A stretch of DNA of 47,069 nucleotides, taken from assembly GCA_011364905.1 (NCBI GenBank), contig RDNZ01000022.1:1-47069 (forward strand). Direction: 5' to 3'. A model generated the notes under the pieces. The model did no database searches, was not told where the DNA came from, and saw only the letters and a list, made by a program, of their open reading frames with translations. Source of the stretch: Candidatus Thorarchaeota archaeon (GTDB taxonomy: Archaea; Asgardarchaeota; Thorarchaeia; Thorarchaeales; Thorarchaeaceae). The position numbers were made by a program, and so were the translations under genes. Positions 26,367-44,674 of the stretch are shown piece after piece (positions within the stretch are counted from its first letter, which is position 1; each line of letters starts with the position of its first letter).

Positions 26367-26978
26367 TTAACCAATCTCTCTCCACTCTAGTATCTTCATA
26401 TCCTCTAGGCTGTTGAGTGATTTCTGGACCTCTTTGAGAGTCAGTCCAATCTGGTCTGCTATATCTCTAGTCGTAAGCTTGCCGTCGCATTTCTTGGCCA
26501 CATCAAAGGTCTCTTGAGTCATTTGACCAAGACGAACAAGCATTGGGTTCACTTTTCCTTTTAGAACTGGAACGACGATTTTTGTTTCTGAGGCGTGACC
26601 ATCCTTAGTGATTTCATCTAGGGTTTTGTAGAATACCTCAAAAGGTTCAAGATTGCCATCCCAATCTTGAAGCATGTTGTCATACTTCTTTGTGAATGTA
26701 TTATTGATATCAGCTAACACAGCCATAGCTGCGTTTCCATCATCCACCTTGTCAACAGTTGCTGCCACTATTACATTGTCCTTCAACGAGAGGCAGATAT
26801 CGAATGCACCAAAGTCAATCACGTGTACTCTGTTTCCATCACTAAGCTCGCGGCCAAATTGGATTAAAGCAGTAAGGAATCCACTAATGAGATTGGGATC
26901 CATGTCAGCTTCGCCATACTTCCTGTCAAGGACACATAGGCCGCTGTCGGCAATCAGGATGTACACGGCTTGTATCAA
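26367..26978 (-). CDS. Longin-domain protein with C-terminal winged helix
   Basis: VYILIADSGLC...DPNLISGFLTALIQFGREL...F.KKY...L..WDG....F is an Asgard longin pattern; CDGKLTTRDIADQIG...L..L wHTH. Confidence 0.85.
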   Translation of the reverse strand: MIQAVYILIADSGLCVLDRKYGEADMDPNLISGFLTALIQFGRELSDGNRVHVIDFGAFDICLSLKDNVIVAATVDKVDDGNAAMAVLADINNTFTKKYDNMLQDWDGNLEPFEVFYKTLDEITKDGHASETKIVVPVLKGKVNPMLVRLGQMTQETFDVAKKCDGKLTTRDIADQIGLTLKEVQKSLNSLEDMKILEWREIG

Positions 26979-31476: not shown

Positions 31477-32808
31477 TCATTTCAGTTTGTGCTTCTTGAC
31501 AAACTCTGTTAGAACGTCCTCTAGATTCGGTCTGCCTATCTCCTGAAGATCATATCGAACTCTGACATTTGGTTTGTCAATCTTTATGACGCGATTGAGG
31601 TCAATCGGAGTTCCGATGACTATTGCTTCGGCATCTGATTCATTAATTGTCTTCTGAAGTTCTGTCATCTGTTTCTTCCCATACCCCATCGCTGGTAAGA
31701 CGTTCTCCAAATGCGAATACTTTTCGAAAGTGGCTTTGATGCTTCCCACCGCAAATGGTCTTGGGTCAATAATTATCGCTCCAGCTTTTCGCGCTGCAAT
31801 GTAACCTGCCCCATATCGCATTCCGCCATGAGTGACAGTAGGTCCATCCTCTATGACAATCACGCGTTTGCCTTTGATCTTCTCAATATCTGATATTGTG
31901 AGTGGAGATGCTGCATCGATGATTGTGGCTTGTGGATTCACAGACATGATGTCCTCTCTGACTTTTTCTATATTCTCATAATCAGCTGTGTCTTCTTTGT
32001 TGATAACAACGACATCAGCCATTCTCAAATTGGTTTCACCGGGGTAATATGAAATTTCATGGCCCGGTCTGTGAGGGTCTGTAATAACAATAAGTAGGTC
32101 TGGTTTGTAGAAAGGAAAGTCGTTATTGCCTCCATCCCACGTGATGACATCTGCTTCTTTTTCAGCTTGCTCTAGGATTTTGCCATAGTCCACTCCAGCA
32201 TAGAGGATGACTCCCATGTTTATCATAGGTTCGTACTCTTCACGTTCCTCAATCGTGCAGTGATACTTGTCCATGTCTTCTAGCTTCTCGTACCTCTGGG
32301 CAATCTGCGTGGTTAGGTCAGGATCATATGGCATTGGATGTCTGATATTCACTGGTTTAAGTCCCAAATGCACGAGAATCTGATTTACCCTTCTTGAGGT
32401 CTGACTCTTTCCACAACCAGTCCGGACAGCACAGACTGCTATGACCGGCTTTTTACTCTTAATCATGGTGTTTTTGGGTCCCATAAGTCGCATATCGGGC
32501 CCTAGACTATTCACCCATGCAATCTTATGACCCACAGTCTGGTAAGGTAAGTCAGAGTATGCTAGAATGCACTGCTCAACATCTAACTCCTTAATGAGCT
32601 CAGGTAGGTTCTTCTCTGGATAGATTTTAATTCCCTTTGGATAAAGAGGTCCCGCGAGCTCCGGCGGATACATCCTGTCCCCTATTCCTGGTATCTGTTC
32701 TGCTGTGAACGCAACGACATCGTAGTCTTCGTTGTTTCTGAAGAAGACGTTGAAGTTATGGAAATCGCGACCGGCTGCGCCCATAATAATGACTTTCTTT
32801 TTACTCAT
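31477..32808 (-). CDS. Cyclic 2,3-diphosphoglycerate synthetase-like P-loop NTPase (possible arginine synthetase)
   Basis: IIMGAAGRDFHNFN, AVRTGCGKSQT, RHPMPY, EEREEYE, WDGGNND, EDGPT.THGGM. Confidence 0.85.
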   Translation of the reverse strand: MSKKKVIIMGAAGRDFHNFNVFFRNNEDYDVVAFTAEQIPGIGDRMYPPELAGPLYPKGIKIYPEKNLPELIKELDVEQCILAYSDLPYQTVGHKIAWVNSLGPDMRLMGPKNTMIKSKKPVIAVCAVRTGCGKSQTSRRVNQILVHLGLKPVNIRHPMPYDPDLTTQIAQRYEKLEDMDKYHCTIEEREEYEPMINMGVILYAGVDYGKILEQAEKEADVITWDGGNNDFPFYKPDLLIVITDPHRPGHEISYYPGETNLRMADVVVINKEDTADYENIEKVREDIMSVNPQATIIDAASPLTISDIEKIKGKRVIVIEDGPTVTHGGMRYGAGYIAARKAGAIIIDPRPFAVGSIKATFEKYSHLENVLPAMGYGKKQMTELQKTINESDAEAIVIGTPIDLNRVIKIDKPNVRVRYDLQEIGRPNLEDVLTEFVKKHKLK

Positions 32809-32919
32809 CTCTAGCTTCACTCCGGGTCTTGAGAGGTTTCTATGGCTTTGGATTTTGAGTCAAGTTAAAAAATGTCTGGTCTAACCAAACGCAGATGCAA
32901 TGTAACGGTAGTTGTTAGC

Positions 32920-33159: not shown

Positions 33160-33711
33160 TTGAAGCTAGTTGATCTGGCCAAGGAGTCAGTTAGGGTCTT
33201 AAAGGAATGCGGGGATGCAGGAATCAGAAGTGACATTTTGGCTGAACGGCTGGATACCCCAAAGCGGCGTGTCTATGATATTATTGCTGTTCTAAAAGCT
33301 CTAGGCCAAGTAAGCACAACTCGAAAGTTTGATGGAACTATCGTTCGATGGATTGACAAGAGCAAAGACTTCGTTCCTCGTGAGTACTATTCTGAGCTAA
33401 AGATCCAACTTGACCAAGAGAGCAGCGAACGGAAGCATCTCCAAGTTCAGGTGGCTGAACTCAAAGAACAGGTTCGTATTTCTAAAATCAAACTACGCAG
33501 AGAATCGACAGCTGTTGAAATATCAAACAAGACCGAGTTCAATACAACTCAGCTTCGTGTCCGTGCTCTTTCAAGTAATGGAATAAAGAGTGTGAAACAC
33601 TCTGGCGTAGAAGTGAAGATTGAGACTCATGAAGCTGGAATGGTTGTAGATCCGTCAGAAATTGAAGTGGACGAAAAGAAAGCCTTAATCACCAAGCTTC
33701 AGCGTCTTTAG
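33160..33711 (+). CDS. E2F/DP-family winged-helix transcription factor homologue
   Basis: LAERL...KRRVYDIIAVL.ALG.V......IVRW carries the RRxYD signature; followed by a coiled coil and a beta-rich segment. Confidence 0.85.
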   Translation: MKLVDLAKESVRVLKECGDAGIRSDILAERLDTPKRRVYDIIAVLKALGQVSTTRKFDGTIVRWIDKSKDFVPREYYSELKIQLDQESSERKHLQVQVAELKEQVRISKIKLRRESTAVEISNKTEFNTTQLRVRALSSNGIKSVKHSGVEVKIETHEAGMVVDPSEIEVDEKKALITKLQRL

Positions 33712-34189: not shown

Positions 34190-35332
34190 TTGGAGTGGTT
34201 TCGGCTGGCCTCCACCAAACTTGATGTAGCATTTGTTGTTGACACGACAGGTTCAATGAAGGACGATATCAAAGCAGTCAAGGACAGTCTCTTTGAGATT
34301 GTGGACCGTATTACCACAAGGACTGAGAATCTGGAGATACGATTCGGAGTAGTGTCCTACAGAGACCATCCTCCACAAGACAGGACATACGTGACACGAG
34401 TGTTTGATTTTGATGCAAAAGTAAAACGTGTTCACAAATTAATTTCCGATTTGAATCCCTCCGAAGGCGGTGATACTCCTGAAGCAGTGGCTGACGGTCT
34501 CTATGATGCTCGAACCAAGCTTTCATGGGAGCGAGATGCATACAAAGTTCTACTTCTTGTTGGAGACGCTCCGCCTCATGGAAGGACATACAATACCATT
34601 GGCGATGATTATTTCCCGGAAGGTTGTCCAAAAGGACATGATGCAATTACAGAAGTTCAACAAATGAGGACAGACTTCGGTAGCACAGTTTTCGTTTTTG
34701 TATGCGGATGCAATCCACTCGTTGAAGACTCATTTAGGCGAATTGCGGCATCAGTGGATGATGGACAATATTACTCTCTTCTCGATGCTCATGAACTTCC
34801 TGAGGCCATACTACGGATACTTGAAGGAGTGAGCGACTTAATCGAATCAGATAGGAAAGTGCTCACTTACTATGAGGCCAACGACGGTACTTTTGATATG
34901 GGTGACGCTGCATCCAACTTAAACTTGGAGCTAAGGGAGCTAAAAACATCCCTCTCACGCTTGCTCGAATTGGGCCGGATTGCCAGGTGGCCAAAAGGGA
35001 GACCGTTATCGACATCTCAGAAGGACCTGACAGTTGTTTTGGGAGAAATACCAAACAACATCGTTGCTGGAAAGGCTTTCAATTATACAATCAGAGTGAA
35101 GAATCCAAGCTCCACGGTTGTTGGTATTCGAGTAATTGCATCCATAGCTACTCCGGATGGCGTTTCCGAGGTCACAAATGAGCACCATGATATTAGCCCT
35201 AATGCAGACAAAAAACTTGAACTGAAGCTTGTGGCAATGACTGATGCCAAAGGAAAAGCATCTTTCAAAGTTGAAGTGTTTTATGGTTCGAGATCTGTTG
35301 CCGCAAAGATTTACAATACTCGAATATATTGA
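34190..35332 (+). CDS. vWA domain - wHTH - Ig-like domain protein
   Basis: DVAFVVDTTGSM, YRDHPPQD, GGDTPEAV, GDAPPHG; wHTH-like AASNLNLELRELKTSLSRLLELGRI; beta-rich C-terminus. Real start may be CTG 34205. Confidence 0.85.
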   Translation: MEWFRLASTKLDVAFVVDTTGSMKDDIKAVKDSLFEIVDRITTRTENLEIRFGVVSYRDHPPQDRTYVTRVFDFDAKVKRVHKLISDLNPSEGGDTPEAVADGLYDARTKLSWERDAYKVLLLVGDAPPHGRTYNTIGDDYFPEGCPKGHDAITEVQQMRTDFGSTVFVFVCGCNPLVEDSFRRIAASVDDGQYYSLLDAHELPEAILRILEGVSDLIESDRKVLTYYEANDGTFDMGDAASNLNLELRELKTSLSRLLELGRIARWPKGRPLSTSQKDLTVVLGEIPNNIVAGKAFNYTIRVKNPSSTVVGIRVIASIATPDGVSEVTNEHHDISPNADKKLELKLVAMTDAKGKASFKVEVFYGSRSVAAKIYNTRIY

Positions 35333-35345
35333 AGGAGGGATCTCA

Positions 35346-36488
35346 TTGAAACTACGTCCAAAACGCGGACGAAATCAACAAGGTCTTTGTTTTGTTTCAA
35401 CTAATCTATTTGATTCAACCACCAATGCATTCCAACTATCCTGTAAATCAAACTCCGTGATTTCGGATGTCAGGGCTTCTCCCAAGGTGCCAAAGGATGT
35501 TATCATTCTTGATGCACGTGTTTTCGATCAGCTTGCATGTTGCGAAGAAGACGAAGTTGAGTTGATTCCTGAAAAGAGCGAAATTCCAGTCTGCACTGAG
35601 ATTCATCTCGGCGTTGTGTCAAGAAGAGGTCTTGATAATCATACAGTCGCGCAAGCAATTTCCAAAAGAATTGATGACTTTCAAGAACACTTTGATGGGC
35701 TCATTCTCGGAGTTGGTCAGGAGATATCTTTGCCTGAATTGGGTGTCAGTTTAGTAATCAAGTCAATGAGTCCCGTTGAACCTAAGAGGAACGCGGCTAG
35801 AATCGACTGGAAAAGACTCATCAAGATTCATCTCAAAGCCATTGAATCAAAACCAAGTAATCTTTGTTTTATCGTGGAAGTGTCCGCAGCCACACAGATC
35901 AAAGATGTCCAGGTAGATGCAGCAGAAGACGCCCATATCACACGTCATCAAGGAATCCTAGAATCTCTTGAATCCCTTGAGGAACGACTGCAGCCTAAAC
36001 AGATTGAGAAATTCGCTGGATTCATCTTCTCTGATAAACTAGTTCCCTTCATTACCTTTGACTCACAGACCGGGGAGGAAACTCAAATCACTAACTTGCA
36101 TTCTGCATCTCTGATTGGATCTTTCAGAGTTTTCCTCGAAGGCACAATTAACGAATTCTCGCAAAAACCTTCTAATCCGGGTCTGGCTCTGAATCAAGGA
36201 TTAGACACAGCCAGTTTGCTGAATGAAGCCAATGGTCTAGTCACAATAGTTGTGTTCTTTTCAAGCGGCGTTTATTCCGCAGGCCAGAATCCCGTGAAAA
36301 TCACCCGTCAAGCCATGACCAATAAATCCGTCAAAATACTTTGTATTTCAGTCGGCGAGAATTCCGCAACAGACATTATGGAAGCTGTAGCTAAGGAAGG
36401 TAATGGATTTGTAATTCAATTGGATAGTGTTCAGAAGACCAGTTCAATTGCAGATGCCATAACTGAAATCGCTAACAATTCAGGGTGA
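35346..36488 (+). CDS. CDC48-N-like domain plus degenerate vWA protein
   Basis: VPKDVIILD..VF..L...E.DEVEL barrel pattern; vWA strands LCFIVEVS, VVFFSSG, ILCISVG, AVAKEGNG. Start moved to TTG after GGAGG. Confidence 0.75.
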   Translation: MKLRPKRGRNQQGLCFVSTNLFDSTTNAFQLSCKSNSVISDVRASPKVPKDVIILDARVFDQLACCEEDEVELIPEKSEIPVCTEIHLGVVSRRGLDNHTVAQAISKRIDDFQEHFDGLILGVGQEISLPELGVSLVIKSMSPVEPKRNAARIDWKRLIKIHLKAIESKPSNLCFIVEVSAATQIKDVQVDAAEDAHITRHQGILESLESLEERLQPKQIEKFAGFIFSDKLVPFITFDSQTGEETQITNLHSASLIGSFRVFLEGTINEFSQKPSNPGLALNQGLDTASLLNEANGLVTIVVFFSSGVYSAGQNPVKITRQAMTNKSVKILCISVGENSATDIMEAVAKEGNGFVIQLDSVQKTSSIADAITEIANNSG

Positions 36489-37603
36489 CTCTCTTGAGTA
36501 ATGACATCTCTACACACCTTCAGGCTCTTTTCCACACTGGTTTAATCACCGGATATATTCAATCAAGACTTGCTGAGGGTTCCCTTAAGACTGGTTGGAT
36601 CGAGCAGGGTCTTCTTTCAAAAGGAATGAAAGGGAATCTTCGTGATAAACACAATCAGGAGTTTCTCACAATTCCTGCTGATAGATTTGCCAGATTAGCA
36701 CGGGACTGTGGCGACGCAGAAGGTGTTTCATTAGCAGTACTCGGACCTAAGGGAATATCTTCAGCCAAATTTGTAGCTATGGTTTTCGGGACATCTGGAT
36801 CTCAAACTCTCATTGCTTTCCAAATTCAAAAGAGCCTGCTTGGAGACATAGTCCAACTTTTGCTGAAGGCTCTCGGAAAGAAAGCGACTCGAAACTCGGA
36901 GGATGCAAATTTGGATTATATTGAGCAGCTCAGACTTGACGCTACTGAGGGTGCCGTGAAAGAAGCAGTTGTTTTGTCACTCCCCAAGAAACAAGAGAAA
37001 ATATCGGGATGGATGAAAGATGCGTTACTGGGTCCTTCTTCTGACAGTATTGAATTCCAGCATGGCGATACCAATAAAATCACGAAATTTGCTGCTTTAG
37101 TCACTCGGTGGCTATCAGGTCTTGAACTCTTCAAGACTACAAACAATGCGATAGCTGCTCTTCTATTCATTGGCCGAGAAAACACTGAGGCATGCTTTTG
37201 GGACCAACCTCAGAGAATCGCCGCATTCACCTCATTTCATGACTTGAGTTTGCAATCGATTTCTCTCAAATATCTGAATCCACTCTGGATTGTCCCTGGG
37301 GAGAGTCTAGTGCCTTCTCGACCGGCTCGAGAAGTTACGGTTGAACCGATGAGACCCAGCGTTCGTTCCGAGGAATCATCACCAACATCCCAGCAGGAGC
37401 AGGTTCTAGATGCTCTCGCAAGAAGACTCGACTCATTAGAAACACGTTTGTCTTCATCTGTTGGGGATGTTGATACCGGTGGAAAAGACAGAGGCAAAAT
37501 GGACCTTCTGCAAACAAAATTATCTGAGAACATTGAGAGAATTGAATCTCTGTCTAAAAGGCTAAACGAGATTGAAGCGAGATTGAAGAAGATTCGTACC
37601 TGA
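36485..37603 (+). CDS. Hypothetical protein with Pro/Ser linker and C-terminal coiled coil
   Basis: GTGA overlap with the upstream gene; heptad repeats at the C-terminus. Confidence 0.75.
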   Translation: MTLLSNDISTHLQALFHTGLITGYIQSRLAEGSLKTGWIEQGLLSKGMKGNLRDKHNQEFLTIPADRFARLARDCGDAEGVSLAVLGPKGISSAKFVAMVFGTSGSQTLIAFQIQKSLLGDIVQLLLKALGKKATRNSEDANLDYIEQLRLDATEGAVKEAVVLSLPKKQEKISGWMKDALLGPSSDSIEFQHGDTNKITKFAALVTRWLSGLELFKTTNNAIAALLFIGRENTEACFWDQPQRIAAFTSFHDLSLQSISLKYLNPLWIVPGESLVPSRPAREVTVEPMRPSVRSEESSPTSQQEQVLDALARRLDSLETRLSSSVGDVDTGGKDRGKMDLLQTKLSENIERIESLSKRLNEIEARLKKIRT

Positions 37604-37621: not shown

Positions 37622-37873
37622 ATGAACCCTAATGATGAACTCGCACAGGAAATTCGTAAGCTTGAGAAAAAAATCCAAACTCTTGAACGAATAGCAAACA
37701 GCGGAAGCAACATTACTGCCTTGACTGATTCTGAACGTGTTTCACAAATTCTCATGCGAATAAACGCAATTCAAAACCTTGTTGATCAAGTGGAGATAGA
37801 GATTGATAAGCTTGAGATGAGGGTGTCAGCAATAGAACACATGGGATTCAGATTCAGAACTAGTGGTCAGTAA
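37622..37873 (+). CDS. Small coiled-coil protein
   Basis: Two heptad-repeat helices; last gene of the + strand run. Confidence 0.7.
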   Translation: MNPNDELAQEIRKLEKKIQTLERIANSGSNITALTDSERVSQILMRINAIQNLVDQVEIEIDKLEMRVSAIEHMGFRFRTSGQ

Positions 37874-40511
37874 CACCTTTTGTCAAGTTGTCTATAAGAC
37901 TCATGAAATAAGCTGAAAAAGACTGTGAGGAAAATGACTCAATTGGAATCACTCGGGCCTGCAATCCTTTCAGTACTCTCAGACTACTCTTCATGTCTCC
38001 ATTTTTTCCAAGAGTGAGAATATCTAGCTGATATCTATCGAATTCGGAAACTGCTCTGAGAAATGACAGATGCTCCTCATCATATACCCCAACCTCACTA
38101 CCGAGGACAAGAGCAATTGTTGGTCTATCTTCTCCAAAGTCCTCCAGATATTCAGCTACGGATCTGTATGCACCTGATATATTCTCGTGACCATCCGATT
38201 CTTCAATTGCATCAAGTATTGAATATATCAGAGAGATGAGAACCTCTTCAGATTGCATATCTTCAAAGAATTCAACATAGGATTGAACCTCATTCCCTCT
38301 TTGAATCGAGAATTTCTCAGGCGTGTTTCCAAACGTAACCAATGCAAAGCGCCCGTCACTTCGATTATGTATTAAGGTGTTTACAACTGACAGTGCAATT
38401 AATGCTGCAATCTGTGACCGTGAAGTTGTCTTTCGCAGCCCTTTGAGGAACTGGTCTAACTCCGGTACTTTTTCGGTTAATGAACTGAGTTGGGTTCTTA
38501 CCGTATGCATTGTCTTCAGAGTCACATCTTTCGTCTTCATCTTCATTCCTTTTGAAACGCAAAGAATCATGTTGAACTCCCTGAAAGCTTGTTGAGGCCT
38601 CAGTTGAGCTGACACCTCTTTGATTCTTCCAATTTGTCCCGACTTTAATTGCGGTTCAGTGCTTTCCAATAAGAGATTGACTTCGTTCTTTTCGCTGCCT
38701 ACACTAAGTTGTGAGTCTAATCCAATAAGAGTTCCATCAATTGCACGCCGAATGTCACTTTCATGTAGATGAATAAAGGATGCAAGTTCTCCATTGTCAT
38801 AGTTCTGCGGCGCACTATATGACAGAATGGCCTTTGAAATGTTCACGACTTCATCTTCATATTTTACTAGATTGACCACTGATGCGTCTTGAAATCCAAA
38901 AAGTGCAGAATCAGATTCAGACACAACAATAGATCTCTCACGGCATCTGGAGTGGTGCTTAGCTTCTCCAGCGGCCCACTTTCCAGTACTTGAATCTAGG
39001 GCTAGGACATAGTCCCCCGACGAAACTGCAAGCGCGGTCATGTCATTTTCACACATTAGAAATACACCCGGCTTGGATTTTGCAATCTCAACTCCAAAAT
39101 GAAGTGCAGATAGTATTTCTTTAGGATTATCCAACTGAAGACAGGTTAGAAGTGCTTGGTCAAAGTGTGTCAGCTGAGCTGGAGAGCTATAGACCGGACC
39201 CTCAAGCTTGGCATTCGCGCGGACCAATGTGTCCAGCAGCACTCCATCTCTTGTAACAAGGCTTTCTGAGAATGCATCTCTCCAACCAGACACCATTATG
39301 GAGCCATTCTTTTCAAGCAATAGTGCCAGGCTCGTCGCCTTGGGATTTGTTGGATGTTTCAATGTCAAAACCGCACTATCTAGATGAACTAGTCCCCCGT
39401 CATTGTCAACCATGTAATCAAGTGAAACAACACTAAGAACTTTGCGAGCATCCAAGATCTGTAAAATTCTAGCAAGCTCATTCATGGCTGCTTTTCCAAG
39501 GCCCTCCTCTGCTGCCACTGAAGTAGCGTTTTTCTCGTAAACAAGAAAGGTTGGGCGAGGTGGAAGAATTGACAACATGTTGCCACCCAAAACACGCTGT
39601 ATCTCTTCTGGTTCCGCTGCAAGGTTCCTACTTAGAAGGTAGCTAAAGACTTCAGATATGCTGTCACCGAATTGGGTTTCAGGATATGCTGACGCAAACA
39701 TTAGTCTCCTTGACCAATTGATATCACTCTGGTTCTTTCGCATGTGGCGAATGAGTGTTGATAGTGAAGATATTGTTGCACCTGATGTCAGGACCCTACT
39801 ACCGGGAACTTCAAGAAGACGCGTTATCTCTTTGCCCCATTGCTTGTGGCTTGTGGTTGAAAGAACAAGGTTTGGCGTTTTGAGACCTGCTTGCTTGAGG
39901 AGAACAAGCCATTCTAGCAATTGGTTCAATTCTGATGGAGGCCCAAGCTGAATAAAGATCGGTTTAGCAGCCTTCAAACCTTCTATGAGGTCTTTCCTGT
40001 TTGCTCCTTTTAGAATATGCGGAAGATCCCTCGCTCCTAATACACATCCCCAGCCCTTCTCTGTTCTCCTATCCTGTCGCATATCCTGAAGGTGCAGTAC
40101 CCGAGGACTGAAAGGGGGGACGGTTGCCCATCTATAGATTGACTCTGCATTTGCATTCTGTTGGAGCTGTGGAAGCATGGTATTTCCCAGACCTATAAGA
40201 GGGCTTACCACTAAATAATCCACAATCCAGCTTGTTTGGGACGGCGTTCCAGAACCATGATAGAATTCACTGAGTAATTTTGGCATTCGAAGATAGTCGT
40301 AGGCTCTTCTTGGTATGTACTTGAAGGCGCCTGGATATTGCGATGAAAAATCATGAAGCTGGTTTTCAACCATGTTATAATATGAAAAGGCTCTGTCCGG
40401 ATCAAAAGTGCGTATATTGGCGCCTGCACGGACTATTCCCAAGTGAGCGGCACCGTCGACGACAACAAAGCGGTGTATCTCATTTGCTTCACTGTCTTCG
40501 ACAACTATCAT
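37860..40511 (-). CDS. Fusion: inactive amidohydrolase-like region + CDC48-N-like + degenerate vWA
   Basis: Colinear similarity first to 40649..42163 (QRVLGGN, SLD.M) and then to 42234..43532 (FN..LC...MKT.DV, PE...FL, SR...AA). Confidence 0.82.
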   Translation of the reverse strand: MIVVEDSEANEIHRFVVVDGAAHLGIVRAGANIRTFDPDRAFSYYNMVENQLHDFSSQYPGAFKYIPRRAYDYLRMPKLLSEFYHGSGTPSQTSWIVDYLVVSPLIGLGNTMLPQLQQNANAESIYRWATVPPFSPRVLHLQDMRQDRRTEKGWGCVLGARDLPHILKGANRKDLIEGLKAAKPIFIQLGPPSELNQLLEWLVLLKQAGLKTPNLVLSTTSHKQWGKEITRLLEVPGSRVLTSGATISSLSTLIRHMRKNQSDINWSRRLMFASAYPETQFGDSISEVFSYLLSRNLAAEPEEIQRVLGGNMLSILPPRPTFLVYEKNATSVAAEEGLGKAAMNELARILQILDARKVLSVVSLDYMVDNDGGLVHLDSAVLTLKHPTNPKATSLALLLEKNGSIMVSGWRDAFSESLVTRDGVLLDTLVRANAKLEGPVYSSPAQLTHFDQALLTCLQLDNPKEILSALHFGVEIAKSKPGVFLMCENDMTALAVSSGDYVLALDSSTGKWAAGEAKHHSRCRERSIVVSESDSALFGFQDASVVNLVKYEDEVVNISKAILSYSAPQNYDNGELASFIHLHESDIRRAIDGTLIGLDSQLSVGSEKNEVNLLLESTEPQLKSGQIGRIKEVSAQLRPQQAFREFNMILCVSKGMKMKTKDVTLKTMHTVRTQLSSLTEKVPELDQFLKGLRKTTSRSQIAALIALSVVNTLIHNRSDGRFALVTFGNTPEKFSIQRGNEVQSYVEFFEDMQSEEVLISLIYSILDAIEESDGHENISGAYRSVAEYLEDFGEDRPTIALVLGSEVGVYDEEHLSFLRAVSEFDRYQLDILTLGKNGDMKSSLRVLKGLQARVIPIESFSSQSFSAYFMSLIDNLTKGVTDH

Positions 40512-40648
40512 TCCATGAGTCTCCAGAATTACCTATACCAACGTCAACGGAAGTCGATATATGCATAGTGCCTATTTCTATGCAAATTGCATCAACGAAA
40601 GAATACTTTATCACTTATGTGGGACAAACACCATTTTGGAGGAACTGA

Positions 40649-42163
40649 GTGTTTATGCTCATTGTGCGAGCTGTTGAAGACCAACCCAATCGCGGCATAA
40701 AGAAAGGAGATGAGTTTTCAATCTATATAGTGGATGCTCACCACCATATGGGTCGTGAGAAAGGGCATAAGAACACGCCAGCTGGAGCATACGAATTCTA
40801 TGCTCAGCTCTGGTTCGAAATTCAAAAAAGAGTTAAGGGGCTTTTAGAAGAAGACCGTCTTCTATTTGAACCAGTTGGCATTGAAGCGCCAGAATTAGCT
40901 GTTCACCTTTTTCGAAGCAAAGCCAGTTGGTCAAGACTTGATCATGGTTGGCTCGTTGACCGCACAATCGTCTTTCCTTACTCAGATGACTATTCAACTC
41001 CCTCAGAAAAAGGTAAACCATCTTTTGAAGTGTCGAATGATAAAATATCATCCTGGACCGCAAGAGCACCTCATTCCTCACGATTGATTGGTTTTGCACG
41101 TGTCAATCCACTTGATGGGTATCATGACGGTTCTCTCGTTGCAGTCAAGGAGCTTGAAAGAGCTGTGTTATCTCTTGGACTTCGTGGTCTCAAGCTCCAT
41201 CCTCTCGCGCAGCTTTTCGTTGATTCCATAGATAAGAGTGAGCCTCGTGAGGTGGTGAAACGAGCTGGAGAGCTGGGAATCCCAGTTATCTTTGACACGC
41301 GAAATATGCGCACAGTGGTACGAATCAAACGTCTTGTTGATTCGATGAGAAATGATCCTGATTGTGGATCAGCAATGAAAGGGCTCAAAGTGATAATGGC
41401 GCATTGCGGTATGGCTCCAGGTGATTCTCGTCTTTATGAAGCAATGAAAGACCCTGCGATTTTTGCAGAAACATCAACACTTCACGATAGGGATGTTCCT
41501 GTCCTTTTTGAAACCGCAATTGACCGGCTTAGCGCACCAAACATGGAATGGTCAGAGAAGATTCTCTTTGGGACCGATTTCAGTTTTCTCTCCGTTCAAG
41601 CTTTGGATGTCATACTCTTCTTGCTTTCTCGAGACTTCAGGGGGACTTTGACTGATGCACAAAGAGTACTTGGCGGCAATGCCCTCTCTATAATTAATAG
41701 GCCATTTCGAACCTCAACTGGTAGTTCTGGAGCACCAACAGAGTTTGTATGTAAGGATAGTTCATTTGCAGTCCAACATGAGCTCGAGAATAAGGTCGTT
41801 TCTCTCATATCAGAAGGTATGTGGGACTTGTGCTCGCTCGATTTCATGATTCCTCCAATTGGGACGTGGCCTGCAATCGATAGTAAAGCTAGCGGAGGAT
41901 TCAACGGCATTGATATGAATTCCTATGTTCTTACATTGTCGTCAAAGGAAAAGCCTAAGGAACTTCATTTCTGGGTGAGAAGGCGTCCAAATGATTACTT
42001 AAGTTGCGCATTACTACCGACACAAGGCATGACTCGATTAGATACACTGGAAAACGCTTCTCAAAAAATGGATCAGGTTTTGTTGAGATCGATTTCAGAC
42101 TATTCGGAAACACTTCAGTCTTCTTCAGATTTTCAGGTTCGTGTAATGGACATTCTCAGGTGA
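40649..42163 (+). CDS. Amidohydrolase-2 family metallo-enzyme with C-terminal extension
   Basis: VDAHHHMG, RLIGFARVNP, GLKLHP, MAHCG, ILFGTDF, LGGNA. Confidence 0.88.
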   Translation: MFMLIVRAVEDQPNRGIKKGDEFSIYIVDAHHHMGREKGHKNTPAGAYEFYAQLWFEIQKRVKGLLEEDRLLFEPVGIEAPELAVHLFRSKASWSRLDHGWLVDRTIVFPYSDDYSTPSEKGKPSFEVSNDKISSWTARAPHSSRLIGFARVNPLDGYHDGSLVAVKELERAVLSLGLRGLKLHPLAQLFVDSIDKSEPREVVKRAGELGIPVIFDTRNMRTVVRIKRLVDSMRNDPDCGSAMKGLKVIMAHCGMAPGDSRLYEAMKDPAIFAETSTLHDRDVPVLFETAIDRLSAPNMEWSEKILFGTDFSFLSVQALDVILFLLSRDFRGTLTDAQRVLGGNALSIINRPFRTSTGSSGAPTEFVCKDSSFAVQHELENKVVSLISEGMWDLCSLDFMIPPIGTWPAIDSKASGGFNGIDMNSYVLTLSSKEKPKELHFWVRRRPNDYLSCALLPTQGMTRLDTLENASQKMDQVLLRSISDYSETLQSSSDFQVRVMDILR

Positions 42164-42233
42164 CGCCAACTCACAATTCTTTATAACAATAAAGTTGGAG
42201 ACTCTTGATAAAGGACTAGAGGAGGCAAAAACC

Positions 42234-43532
42234 ATCACCAAAAAATTAGCCTTGGAAATAATAGATGGAGGCGACCTAAGAGGTTTTGCTAACATTAATC
42301 CCAAGATTGCCAAGAAACTTGATGCTGACATTGGCTCTATTGTCATTTTTGAAGATCCACAGAGTAGTTTTTGGGGTGCCGCTGAAATTAGAAAAAGCGA
42401 CGATACGCCAGAAAACGCTATTGTCATTGATACGCTAGTCCTTGAAGCTTCACTATTAATGGAAGGCGATCAAGTAGAGGTCACGCTTTATGATGAAGAT
42501 ATGCTTGCATTGGAATATGTGGAGTTTGGATTGAAACCCTTGACTGAAGACGCAAACACAGAAGATCTTGTTACCAGGGCAGCTGAGAGAGTCAAAGGAT
42601 TGGAGAACATTATTGGTGGTCGGTTAGTATATCCTGGCATGTCCTTCAATTGGCCAGAACTCGATGTAAAGGTCGAAATAATCAGTACAAAGCCTGAATT
42701 GGCAGGGAAGAGTTTTGCGAAGTTGGCATTTGAGGCTCTTCGTGAACGAACTGGTTACCAGTTCAAAACAGTGGGAATTGCAACTCCCTTCAATGCAGTG
42801 CTCTGCATTGATACAAGTGGATCCATGAAGACAACTGATGTTCCTGTTCAGGACATTGCACACGCTCGCGAGGGTCTGAAAGACCTTGCTGGAGATAGCC
42901 CAGAAGTCCAAGCCTTTCTCAACAGATTCGAGGAGGGTAAGAATGTCAGTCGCGCCGAGGCGGCAGCAATGGCTGTGTTGCTTTACTTGGCAGAGAAAGT
43001 GGGTCGTGGTTACGGCGAAAAGGTCGGAGTAATCACCTTTGAAAAGGAAGTCAGCGAAATGACATTTCTAAACTCTGACACAGGTGAAGTTCAGCCTTTT
43101 GTAGAGTGTACAGGCAGAGAGAAAGCCTTGGGCCTGCAAATCATAAGTACTCATGTCGTCGATAAGGTCGAAGAGGGAGGTACACTCACAGATATGGGCA
43201 CAGCTCTCTCCAAGGCACACGAAATAATGGACGAATTTGGGGACCCTGACAAACCCACTATGCTCATCATGCTAACAGACGGAATGACCACTTCTGGACC
43301 TCCGCCGCTCAAGATACTAAGAGAAAAATTCACTGAGCGAAATAAACTGGTTATTTATTCAATCGGACTGGGCGAGCGAAGTGAGATAGATGAAGAGCTG
43401 ATGCTGGCCATAGCTCAATATGGAAATGGTAGTTATCGTCACGTTGACAATATGAGGGATCTCCTTGAATGGTACGGAAAACTTGCCGGGGAGTTTGCTG
43501 TGGTTATTCGAGGCTCTGAGCACCCGGTTTAG
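42234..43532 (+). CDS. CDC48-N-like domain plus vWA protein with intact MIDAS
   Basis: A.INP.IA.KL...G..V and IVID.......L.EGDQVEV double-psi barrel pattern; DTSGS, TDMG.AL, LTDG, SIGLG. Start is ATC 42234 (after GGAGG) or TTG 42195. Confidence 0.85.
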   Translation: MTKKLALEIIDGGDLRGFANINPKIAKKLDADIGSIVIFEDPQSSFWGAAEIRKSDDTPENAIVIDTLVLEASLLMEGDQVEVTLYDEDMLALEYVEFGLKPLTEDANTEDLVTRAAERVKGLENIIGGRLVYPGMSFNWPELDVKVEIISTKPELAGKSFAKLAFEALRERTGYQFKTVGIATPFNAVLCIDTSGSMKTTDVPVQDIAHAREGLKDLAGDSPEVQAFLNRFEEGKNVSRAEAAAMAVLLYLAEKVGRGYGEKVGVITFEKEVSEMTFLNSDTGEVQPFVECTGREKALGLQIISTHVVDKVEEGGTLTDMGTALSKAHEIMDEFGDPDKPTMLIMLTDGMTTSGPPPLKILREKFTERNKLVIYSIGLGERSEIDEELMLAIAQYGNGSYRHVDNMRDLLEWYGKLAGEFAVVIRGSEHPV

Positions 43533-44674
43533 TCACGAGGTTCAAGAGCTTGAGTGAGGCCTTTCAAGGTTTCTAGGTCCATTTCCTGTATTTGATCCTC
43601 TGGGATTCCCTCAAGCATTACTTCTGGTATGCTAATTAAAAGCTCAGCCTTTTCTTGCCCGTACTTGTCGATGAAGGTCTGCATTCTTGTATCAGCTTCT
43701 TCCTCTACAGGTTCAGGCTCAACCTCTTCTGGTTCGCTCTCAGAAGTTGATGACAGAAGGGCTTCAAGTTCTTCAACGCTTAAGGTGGCTAGTGTTTCGT
43801 CACCAACCTCCTTACGAACTTCTGCTGGGAGTTTCTCAATCAACTCTTCTTGAGCCGTTAGCGATTTCTTCCTCTTTACTTTCTTTACCTTACGAACCTT
43901 GACCTTCTTCTTTTTCTTGGGTGCCTCAGATGGAATTGCGACCTTAAGTTTCTGCACGAGTTCTCTGGCCGATGAAGGTGTTAGACGTCTGAGATCTTCT
44001 GGAGGCAATGTGCTTAGTATTTCATCTGGCAACTCACTGAGAATTTCATCTATTTCGTCGGAAGATCCTCCCGCTTTAGAAGTCTCAACACTAGCTGCAG
44101 CTCCTTCTGAAAGGAGAATTGGGGTCCCTTCTAATTCTTCCTCAAGTGAGGCGGTGTCAATCTCAATATCAAAGTCTTTTCCGCGCCAGTTGTTATAATG
44201 ATCAATTGCAGATGGCTTCATTTTAATTCCTGTAAGGAACTTGTTAATGTCTTCGTCTATCATATCCGGAAAGTTATCAATGAGCTTCTCGATTTCATCA
44301 TCGGAAATACGCGCCCAAATCGGACCATTCAACAATTTTGATAGACCAGCGGCACAATGTGACCGCACCCATGGGCTGGAATCTTTTAAACCTTGGATCA
44401 TAACAGGAATTGTCCTCGGTTGATGATAAAATGCAAGTGCTTGTGCTGCGGCAATCCGTACATCCTGCACGTCATCTGAGAGGGATTTGACAATATCAGT
44501 TACTACAGTGGGATCCGCCAAGTCGATTGCCGCAATTAAGGCTCTTTCCCTGACGATATCTGATGGATCTGAGAAAGCTTTGATTAGTGCAGCTCTTTCT
44601 GCTTTACTCTCTCTGGCAAGTCGCCCTACCTCCTCTGTTTCGAATTCCAACAAAAGACTCCTTGTCTTTGCCAA
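43529..44674 (-). CDS. HEAT/PBS-lyase repeat protein with acidic repeats and a polybasic tract
   Basis: D....VR..A repeats (DPSDIVRERA, DDVQDVRIAAAQAL, DSSPWVRSHCAAGL); PKKKKKVKVRKVKKVKRKK. Confidence 0.85.
   Translation of the reverse strand: MAKTRSLLLEFETEEVGRLARESKAERAALIKAFSDPSDIVRERALIAAIDLADPTVVTDIVKSLSDDVQDVRIAAAQALAFYHQPRTIPVMIQGLKDSSPWVRSHCAAGLSKLLNGPIWARISDDEIEKLIDNFPDMIDEDINKFLTGIKMKPSAIDHYNNWRGKDFDIEIDTASLEEELEGTPILLSEGAAASVETSKAGGSSDEIDEILSELPDEILSTLPPEDLRRLTPSSARELVQKLKVAIPSEAPKKKKKVKVRKVKKVKRKKSLTAQEELIEKLPAEVRKEVGDETLATLSVEELEALLSSTSESEPEEVEPEPVEEEADTRMQTFIDKYGQEKAELLISIPEVMLEGIPEDQIQEMDLETLKGLTQALEPRD

Follow-up and report, generated by a model that had tools for sequence, protein, structure and literature searches.

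A gene in a 47,069-nucleotide stretch of DNA from Candidatus Thorarchaeota archaeon (GCA_011364905.1, contig RDNZ01000022.1, positions 1 to 47,069; hereafter, the window) encodes a fused 883-aa protein (F), which is an end-to-end paralogue of two separately encoded proteins, an amidohydrolase (A) and a Cdc48N-vWA protein (V). The genes for A and V are transcribed away from F across a 137-nt spacer. In every orthologue examined, F lost the metal/catalytic residues of the amidohydrolase and the metal-ion-dependent adhesion site (MIDAS) of the vWA domain. Genome-wide counts were made over 400 Asgard genomes, of which 85 constitute the window's own family (f1).

The relationship between F and its neighbours was detected in both pairwise and profile comparisons. 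From BLASTP, F residues 258–437 matched A residues 293–475 (27% identity, E 6e-9), and F residues 610–835 matched V residues 157–391 (25% identity, E 1e-12). With hhalign family profiles of 61 F, 13 A, and 12 V sequences, F residues 1–456 aligned with A residues 2–504 over 438 columns (probability 99.8, E 3.1e-29), and F residues 464–860 aligned with V residues 12–420 over 391 columns (probability 99.9, E 5.7e-34). As these profile matches run from end to end, F is collinear with A followed by V, including the α/β extension that follows the barrel of A. A preliminary description of this DNA, made from the letters alone, had aligned the two halves of F with A and V, and both alignments were borne out by these scores; the motif pairs that it cited (VVDGAAHLG/IVDAHHHMG, WSRRLMFASAY/WSEKILFGTDF, SLDYM/SLDFM, WAAGE/WGAAE, and LCVSKGMKM/LCIDTSGSM) all fell in aligned columns. 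The only detectable paralogues of F in its own genome were A and V, both of which adjoin it.

No Pfam (E ≤ 0.1) or NCBIfam model matched F. Its N-half scored below the gathering score of Amidohydro_2 (PF04909), with 20.3 bits for a Jordarchaeia orthologue against a cut-off of 26.4, and the kinship of the N-half with PF04909 was visible only through the neighbouring paralogue A (hhalign E 3e-29). The N-half has the (β/α)8 amidohydrolase barrel fold, and the C-terminal domain has the vWA α/β fold (PF00092/PF13519). The AlphaFold2 model of F, built from the 61-sequence alignment, had a mean predicted local distance difference test score (pLDDT) of 90 and a predicted template modelling score (pTM) of 0.85. 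In Foldseek searches, F residues ~470–640 matched the N domains of p97/NSF, and the p97 N domain alone matched a model containing V with a root-mean-square deviation (rmsd) of ~4 Å over 184 columns. The Pfam model CDC48_N matched six of the 12 V-family members (best E 5e-4, below the cut-off), and at the sequence level, the Cdc48N-like module of F was linked to the V family solely by hhalign.

The residues that characterize the two active families are replaced in F. D29, H31, H33, H184, H252, and D310 are invariant in the A family, and the MIDAS residues D206, S208, S210, T332, and D362 are invariant in the V family. Among the 61 F orthologues, the position of H31 was occupied by S, A, F, and other residues, that of H33 by Q in 28 and H in 12, that of H252 by V, A, or T, and that of D310 by A or S, while the segment carrying H184 was deleted. 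The five MIDAS positions were variably substituted (D to S, S to G, S to K or D, T to E, and D to N, S, or G) and read S/G/K/E/S in the window protein. None of the 61 orthologues kept more than two of the four ligand positions or three or more of the five MIDAS positions, and no His or Cys was conserved in the barrel. The loss of metal ligands and MIDAS, which had been noticed in the window protein, is thus a property of the whole F family. Judged from its sequence, F is a pseudoenzyme in the general sense of the term, i.e., a homologue of an enzyme that is devoid of the catalytic residues and is kept by selection.

The action of selection on F was evident in the length and substitution pattern of its orthologues. 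A total of 112 orthologues were found, and they were full length (872–923 aa) down to 33% identity. The ratios of nonsynonymous to synonymous substitution rates (dN/dS) were calculated by the Nei–Gojobori method for 14 same-genus genome pairs with dS < 1.6; only same-genus genome loci were used, with the 96% and 89% identical F orthologues left out. The ratio was 0.07–0.14 for F (0.03–0.12 for the N-half and 0.08–0.18 for the C-half), compared with 0.08–0.12 for A and 0.005–0.027 for V. The open reading frame (ORF) of F has therefore stayed intact under purifying selection at a dN/dS of ~0.1, as had been proposed, and neutral decay is excluded by values that lie alongside those of the active hydrolase. 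The idea of a decaying pseudogene or an annotation artefact, which would explain the loss of catalytic residues and nothing else, is of negligible probability in view of the full-length ORFs in ~78 Thorarchaeia and 11 Jordarchaeia genomes, the ω of ~0.1, and the confidently predicted fold. Same-genus proteins shared 56–77% identity with their window counterpart for F, 63–79% for A, and 89–95% for V. V was ~80% identical across the family and evolved ~10 times slower than its neighbours. This extreme conservation of V points to many constrained contacts.

Among the domains of F, conservation is highest in the dead barrel, where 60 of the 325 positions are conserved at ≥90%. The most conserved motifs were YPETQxGDS (276–290), which lies at and after the position aligned to the lost β8 Asp, RVLGGN..LPPRP (306–320), which follows it, and LTSGATISSLS (241–255), which lies after β7. 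From the alignment and secondary structure, the constraint on F appears to be centred on the former active-site face of the barrel, and conservation of this face fits with F still binding something there. The same stretch could be taken to indicate that F is a cryptic enzyme with a new, possibly metal-independent site composed of the invariant D19, D98, R137, Y276, and N311 and the conserved E278, D283, and E287. Metal-independent Amidohydro_2 members such as LigI exist, which speaks for such an enzyme; however, the barrel has no conserved His or Cys, the four canonical positions are variable, and no Pfam or NCBIfam model recognizes F. We consider a cryptic activity of this kind very improbable.

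F was present in ~78 of the 85 f1 genomes, in the single genome of family f2, and in all 11 genomes of the Jordarchaeia families f15 and f16, and it was found in none of the 135 genomes of f22, the largest Asgard family. Distant members carry Jordarchaeia or Freyarchaeota names in their source records. In a maximum-likelihood tree of the barrel domains, the F N-halves from Thorarchaeia, f2, and Jordarchaeia formed one clade (100/100), which, with plain amidohydrolases as outgroups, nested within the Asgard A-type family and took no supported position among the A clades. In the Cdc48N-vWA tree, a branch with support of 100/99 separated all F C-halves from all V proteins. Both trees contain long branches. 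According to these trees, F arose once, either before the split of Thorarchaeia and Jordarchaeia or with an early transfer between them, and it did not come from a recent copying of the pair that it faces.

The old age that the preliminary description had assigned to the fused copy agrees with this single origin and the 100/100 clade. Its proposal of an inverted duplication of the local two-gene unit was not supported, as the F clade is monophyletic across Thorarchaeia and Jordarchaeia, is separated from the active copies by long and fully supported branches, and in Jordarchaeia is located away from the pair. The complete Jordarchaeia genome G117 has two A–V pairs, and F lies ~14 kb from one of them; Jordarchaeia F is adjacent to neither. 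Because of this distance, the head-to-head layout represents an arrangement of the Thorarchaeia lineage and is not proof of the mode of origin. A and V were separate genes in every lineage inspected, which makes a fusion in the F lineage more likely than a fission of the active pair, on trees whose root is unresolved. Apparent A–V fusions in 11 genomes (open frames of 950–970 aa) were rejected, as TGA, TAG, or TAA stops separate the two genes in every locus inspected. The Jordarchaeia neighbourhood (L017, G117:C1:2358000-2377000; L019, G115) differs from that of Thorarchaeia: F is followed by a conserved 344–384-aa protein without a Pfam match, and in G117, a protein with an AN1 zinc finger and an M50 peptidase domain is encoded between the two.

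A, V, and a GCS2-type ATP-dependent carboxylate–amine ligase (PF04107, ~1170 aa) form a gene set whose gains, duplications, and losses coincide across Asgard archaea. A was found in 254, V in 252, and the ligase in 251 of the 400 genomes; the same ~14 families were positive for each of the three and the same families were empty, and A and V were absent from the same nine f1 genomes. The genes for A and V were adjacent in Thorarchaeia, f2, f3, and both Jordarchaeia pairs and were ~3.5 kb apart in f11. The ligase gene lies beside each Jordarchaeia A–V pair, having been duplicated with it, and ~9 kb beyond V in the Thorarchaeia relatives. In the window's own genome, the ligase (~1172 aa) is encoded on contig C52 (C52:8801-~12317; L078/L079), outside the window, and the contig of the window ends ~3.5 kb after V. 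Since the genes are adjacent and their phyletic profiles nearly identical, A and V work together, and the partnership that the preliminary description had read from the fusion thereby gains independent support. The combination of a ligase making amide bonds, a hydrolase from an amide-breaking family, and a docking protein with a metal site suggests a system that would add, remove, and dock an amide-linked group. The V homologue of f22 is ~700–730 aa in length (L046, G147:C36:248912-253135), with A located 22 kb away and not adjacent. It has an N-terminal extension with a second weak Cdc48N-like match (residues 226–301, E 4e-4), and this match may mark a tandem N domain.

The spacer between F and A carries two TATA-like motifs back to back, GATATATGCATAGTGCC (40556-40572) toward F and AATACTTTATCAC (40602-40614) toward A. 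The f1 consensus was GATATATGC toward F and (A/T)TTTATCAC toward A. Both motifs were kept in most of the 24 Thorarchaeia loci compared, and the spacer of the f2 locus L020 instead measures 732 nt; GGAG or GGAGG precedes the start of both F and A. We infer, at the level of the consensus, that these motifs act as promoters.

Taken with the conserved former active-site face, these data lead us to read F tentatively, with somewhat less than even confidence, as a binding protein without catalytic activity (reader, decoy, or adaptor) that is linked to the ligand or partners of the A–V–ligase module. The face of the dead barrel and the Cdc48N and vWA modules of F would still recognize a ligand or partner related to the ligase–hydrolase–vWA set. 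In Thorarchaeia, F would be co-expressed with A and V from the conserved back-to-back promoter region. F would modulate or complement the module and would not be an obligate subunit of it, because F survives the loss of the module.

This survival was observed in three genomes of three genera (G315, G321, and G323), which are 95–98% complete and, together with several other results, weigh against a role of F tied to the module. All three keep an intact full-length F without A and V; G321 and G323 are also devoid of the ligase, and G315 keeps a diverged ligase-like frame. F must therefore have some function that is independent of the module. Conversely, most Asgard families have the A–V pair without F, and most Asgards carry A, V, and the ligase but no F. 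The conserved acidic residues E278, D283, and E287 near the old site leave room for a new activity. In addition, a model of the A–V pair itself, obtained with AlphaFold2 from the read-through sequence of locus L016 (TAG read as Q as a modelling device), had a pLDDT of 87.7 and a pTM of only 0.59, so that the pairing of the active proteins is not confidently modelled. The three genomes share the synteny of the window (SPFH, NfeD, CAAX protease, HEAT, F, E2F/DP, and cobW-like genes) and are also without the upstream genes for the 380-aa vWA, 414-aa, and coiled-coil proteins. The full set is present in genus-mates of both G315 and G321, which means that F was spared in at least two independent losses. 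The dependence between F and the module is thus not obligate in either direction, and genomes with the dead copy only offer a natural comparison for what F does alone.

The rate of F was compared after the loss of the module using relative-rate tests. In G321, F had accumulated 182–185 lineage-specific changes versus 80–85 in G320/G322 (p 1e-9 to 1e-10), while the HEAT control (44 versus 40–42) and the cobW control were not accelerated. Two results count against a specific effect: the E2F/DP-like control was also accelerated in G321 (27–30 versus 8–13 lineage-specific changes), and the acceleration of F in G315 was matched by that of HEAT. The rate shift of F after module loss thus gives partial support to a coupling, which would be specific in only one of the two testable lineages.

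In the preliminary description, F had been cast as a scaffold or regulator. The rate shift in G321 speaks for a coupling of this kind; an obligate link does not stand, given the three genomes with F alone and the many with the pair alone. In its strictest form, this idea makes F an obligate but inert protomer, paralogous to A and V, that serves them as a scaffold or an allosteric regulator. It draws on the head-to-head layout with promoter motifs held across f1, the co-occurrence of F, A, and V in ~75 of the 85 f1 genomes, and the faster evolution of F in G321 following loss of the pair. Self-associating proteins often have paralogues that retain the interface, and inert protomers have precedents in the inactive dihydroorotase-like subunits of some bacterial aspartate transcarbamoylases and in MPN−/MPN+ pairs. 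We nevertheless regard an obligate protomer as unlikely, as F is intact and full length in G315, G321, and G323, Jordarchaeia F adjoins neither pair, and the pair is widespread without F.

At the other extreme, F may have become a fully neo-functionalized adaptor, for example, a pure scaffold similar to DEPDC5, and its adjacency to the pair would be historical. The survival of F after module loss, the long stem branches separating F from the active copies, its own family-specific conserved motifs, and the MIDAS-less vWA plus Cdc48N layout with DEPDC5 and Iml1 as top Foldseek matches are in line with this. Such a complete departure is distinctly unlikely, however, because the divergent promoter architecture is kept over the whole family, the rate shift in G321 suggests that some constraint came from the module, and no alternative partner co-varied with F among those looked at (HEAT, longin–winged-helix, and coiled-coil proteins). 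A binding protein that keeps some relation to the module remains the reading that we prefer.

The likeness to DEPDC5 was found at the level of the fold. Using the F model, Foldseek placed DEPDC5 (E 6.9e-12) and Iml1 at the top, above p97 and NSF N-D1. Using the model containing V, the top five matches were all DEPDC5, with E values of 1.3e-12 to 2.3e-10 and ~430 columns over both domains at an rmsd of ~10 Å; p97 fitted this model well only over its N domain. Taken by itself, the vWA domain was a better match to classical vWA domains. The N-terminal domain (NTD) of DEPDC5 was reported to be similar to a Sec18/NSF domain, and its SABA domain to a Sec23 domain (PMC8534245). F and V share the NTD and SABA folds in the same order with DEPDC5/Iml1 (Sea1) of GATOR1/SEACIT. 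They differ in that they end with the vWA domain and are without the SHEN, DEP, and C-terminal domains. Pfam IML1 (PF12257) gave no match at E ≤ 10 for the 12 V-family members, nor did it match F, and DEPDC5 was absent from the PDB profile search at E ≤ 10. NPRL2-like longins, without a DEPDC5 homologue, were reported in Thorarchaeia (10.1101/2020.10.19.343400). We hold it to be highly doubtful, from these models, that the Cdc48N-vWA family is the archaeal stock of the eukaryotic DEPDC5/Iml1 NTD–SABA core. If it were, the MIDAS-less F would illustrate how a metal-site adaptor of a ligase–hydrolase system becomes a pure scaffold. The Asgard-wide gene set, together with a V protein whose best fold match is the front of DEPDC5/Iml1, makes a testable candidate for the precursors of eukaryotic signalling scaffolds.

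F was further compared with known systems. It differs from Amidohydro_2 enzymes (PF04909; CAC3332, 3cjp; a COG3618 hydrolase, 4dlf; LigW2, 4qs5) in having every metal/catalytic position replaced and Cdc48N and vWA modules joined to its barrel. Among solved proteins, the one nearest to the vWA domain of V by profile was the archaeal 5a8j, named "VWA2" by its depositor (E 1e-7), with a match spanning only ~90 residues of the domain. To our knowledge, 5a8j is not known to have a Cdc48N module, a partner hydrolase, or a fused, inactive copy. Pseudoenzymes are common, and F resembles known pseudoenzyme paralogues as a dead paralogue under purifying selection beside an active relative. It differs from them in that an enzyme module and a metal-site adhesion module are both dead in one fused polypeptide, which mirrors a whole two-gene unit and outlives the active genes in some lineages. 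The double-dead fusion is a new variant among these paralogues: a whole two-gene unit was copied, fused, inactivated in both parts, and kept under purifying selection of the grade seen in enzymes since before two Asgard classes diverged. The source records name the proteins hypothetical or "VWA domain-containing". A search of the ESM Atlas retrieved its own cluster and generic vWA clusters only, with no usable match for the C-half. A word-indexed homologue search with V returned only close Thorarchaeia relatives without functional names, and no published description of this family, or of an Asgard vWA plus amidohydrolase locus, was found in the literature searched.

Table 1. Features of the F–A–V locus, with positions in the window, strand, and supporting evidence
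Feature	Position	Strand	Evidence
F gene, 883 aa	37860-40511	-	ORF; 112 full-length orthologues; dN/dS; AlphaFold2 model
F residues 1-325, amidohydrolase-type TIM barrel without metal ligands	39537-40511	-	
F residues 326-460, α/β extension, also in A after the barrel (A ~350-504)	39132-39536	-	BLASTP, hhalign, secondary structure
F residues 461-640, Cdc48/NSF N-domain-like module	38592-39131	-	hhalign to V N-domain; Foldseek
F residues 641-883, vWA fold, MIDAS lost	37863-38591	-	
F/A divergent intergenic region, 137 nt, two TATA-like motifs back to back	40512-40648	.	
A, Amidohydro_2 hydrolase, 504 aa, predicted active	40649-42163	+	Pfam PF04909 E 5e-13
V, Cdc48N-vWA protein, intact MIDAS, 445 aa	42195-43532	+	Pfam VWA_2 E 2e-10
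HEAT-repeat protein, convergent with V	43529-44674	-	Pfam HEAT_2 E 5e-21

The true start of A is probably the ATG at 40655 and not the GTG at 40649, as the orthologues begin with MLVVRA and a stop codon lies directly upstream. In genus g12, a hydrolase A with one in-frame TAG was considered as a pyrrolysine-containing or broken gene and rejected; the TAG is the stop codon immediately before the authentic ATG start, and the genes are intact. The 31-nt spacer between A and V contains the motif TTTATAAC (42180-42187), which was kept in five of the six loci inspected and absent in the f2 locus L020. The motif is TATA-like, yet it lies only 8–15 nt before the annotated TTG start of V; either the start of V would lie further downstream or TTTATAAC would play another role.

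Several neighbouring genes were inspected as possible partners of F. The HEAT gene was found in 81 of the 85 f1 genomes, including genus g15, which is without F, A, and V, and in genomes without A–V, it adjoins F in the same direction (loci L065-L067). A specific partnership was rejected, as HEAT also occurs in g15 without F and the adjacency is the outcome of deleting the intervening pair. Upstream of F lies a co-directional trio (34190-37603) encoding a 380-aa vWA protein with intact-looking matches, a 414-aa protein whose vWA match is weak, and a coiled-coil protein of 372 aa; in G315, G321, and G323, the trio was lost together with A–V. The coiled-coil gene (36485-37603) is fast-evolving (26–63% identity) and was rejected as a strict partner of F, since the window query left it undetected in five genera, and four of these carry F, A, and V.

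A longin plus winged-helix protein (26367-26978), conserved at 70–92% identity across the family, is encoded ~10–12 kb from F in nearly every genus. This proximity reflects general synteny and does not indicate a partnership of the NPRL2/3 type, as the gene lies at a similar distance from HEAT in g15, which is without F, A, and V. The genes for an E2F/DP-type winged-helix protein (33160-33711) and a cobW-like GTPase (31477-32820) flank the locus in all genomes inspected.

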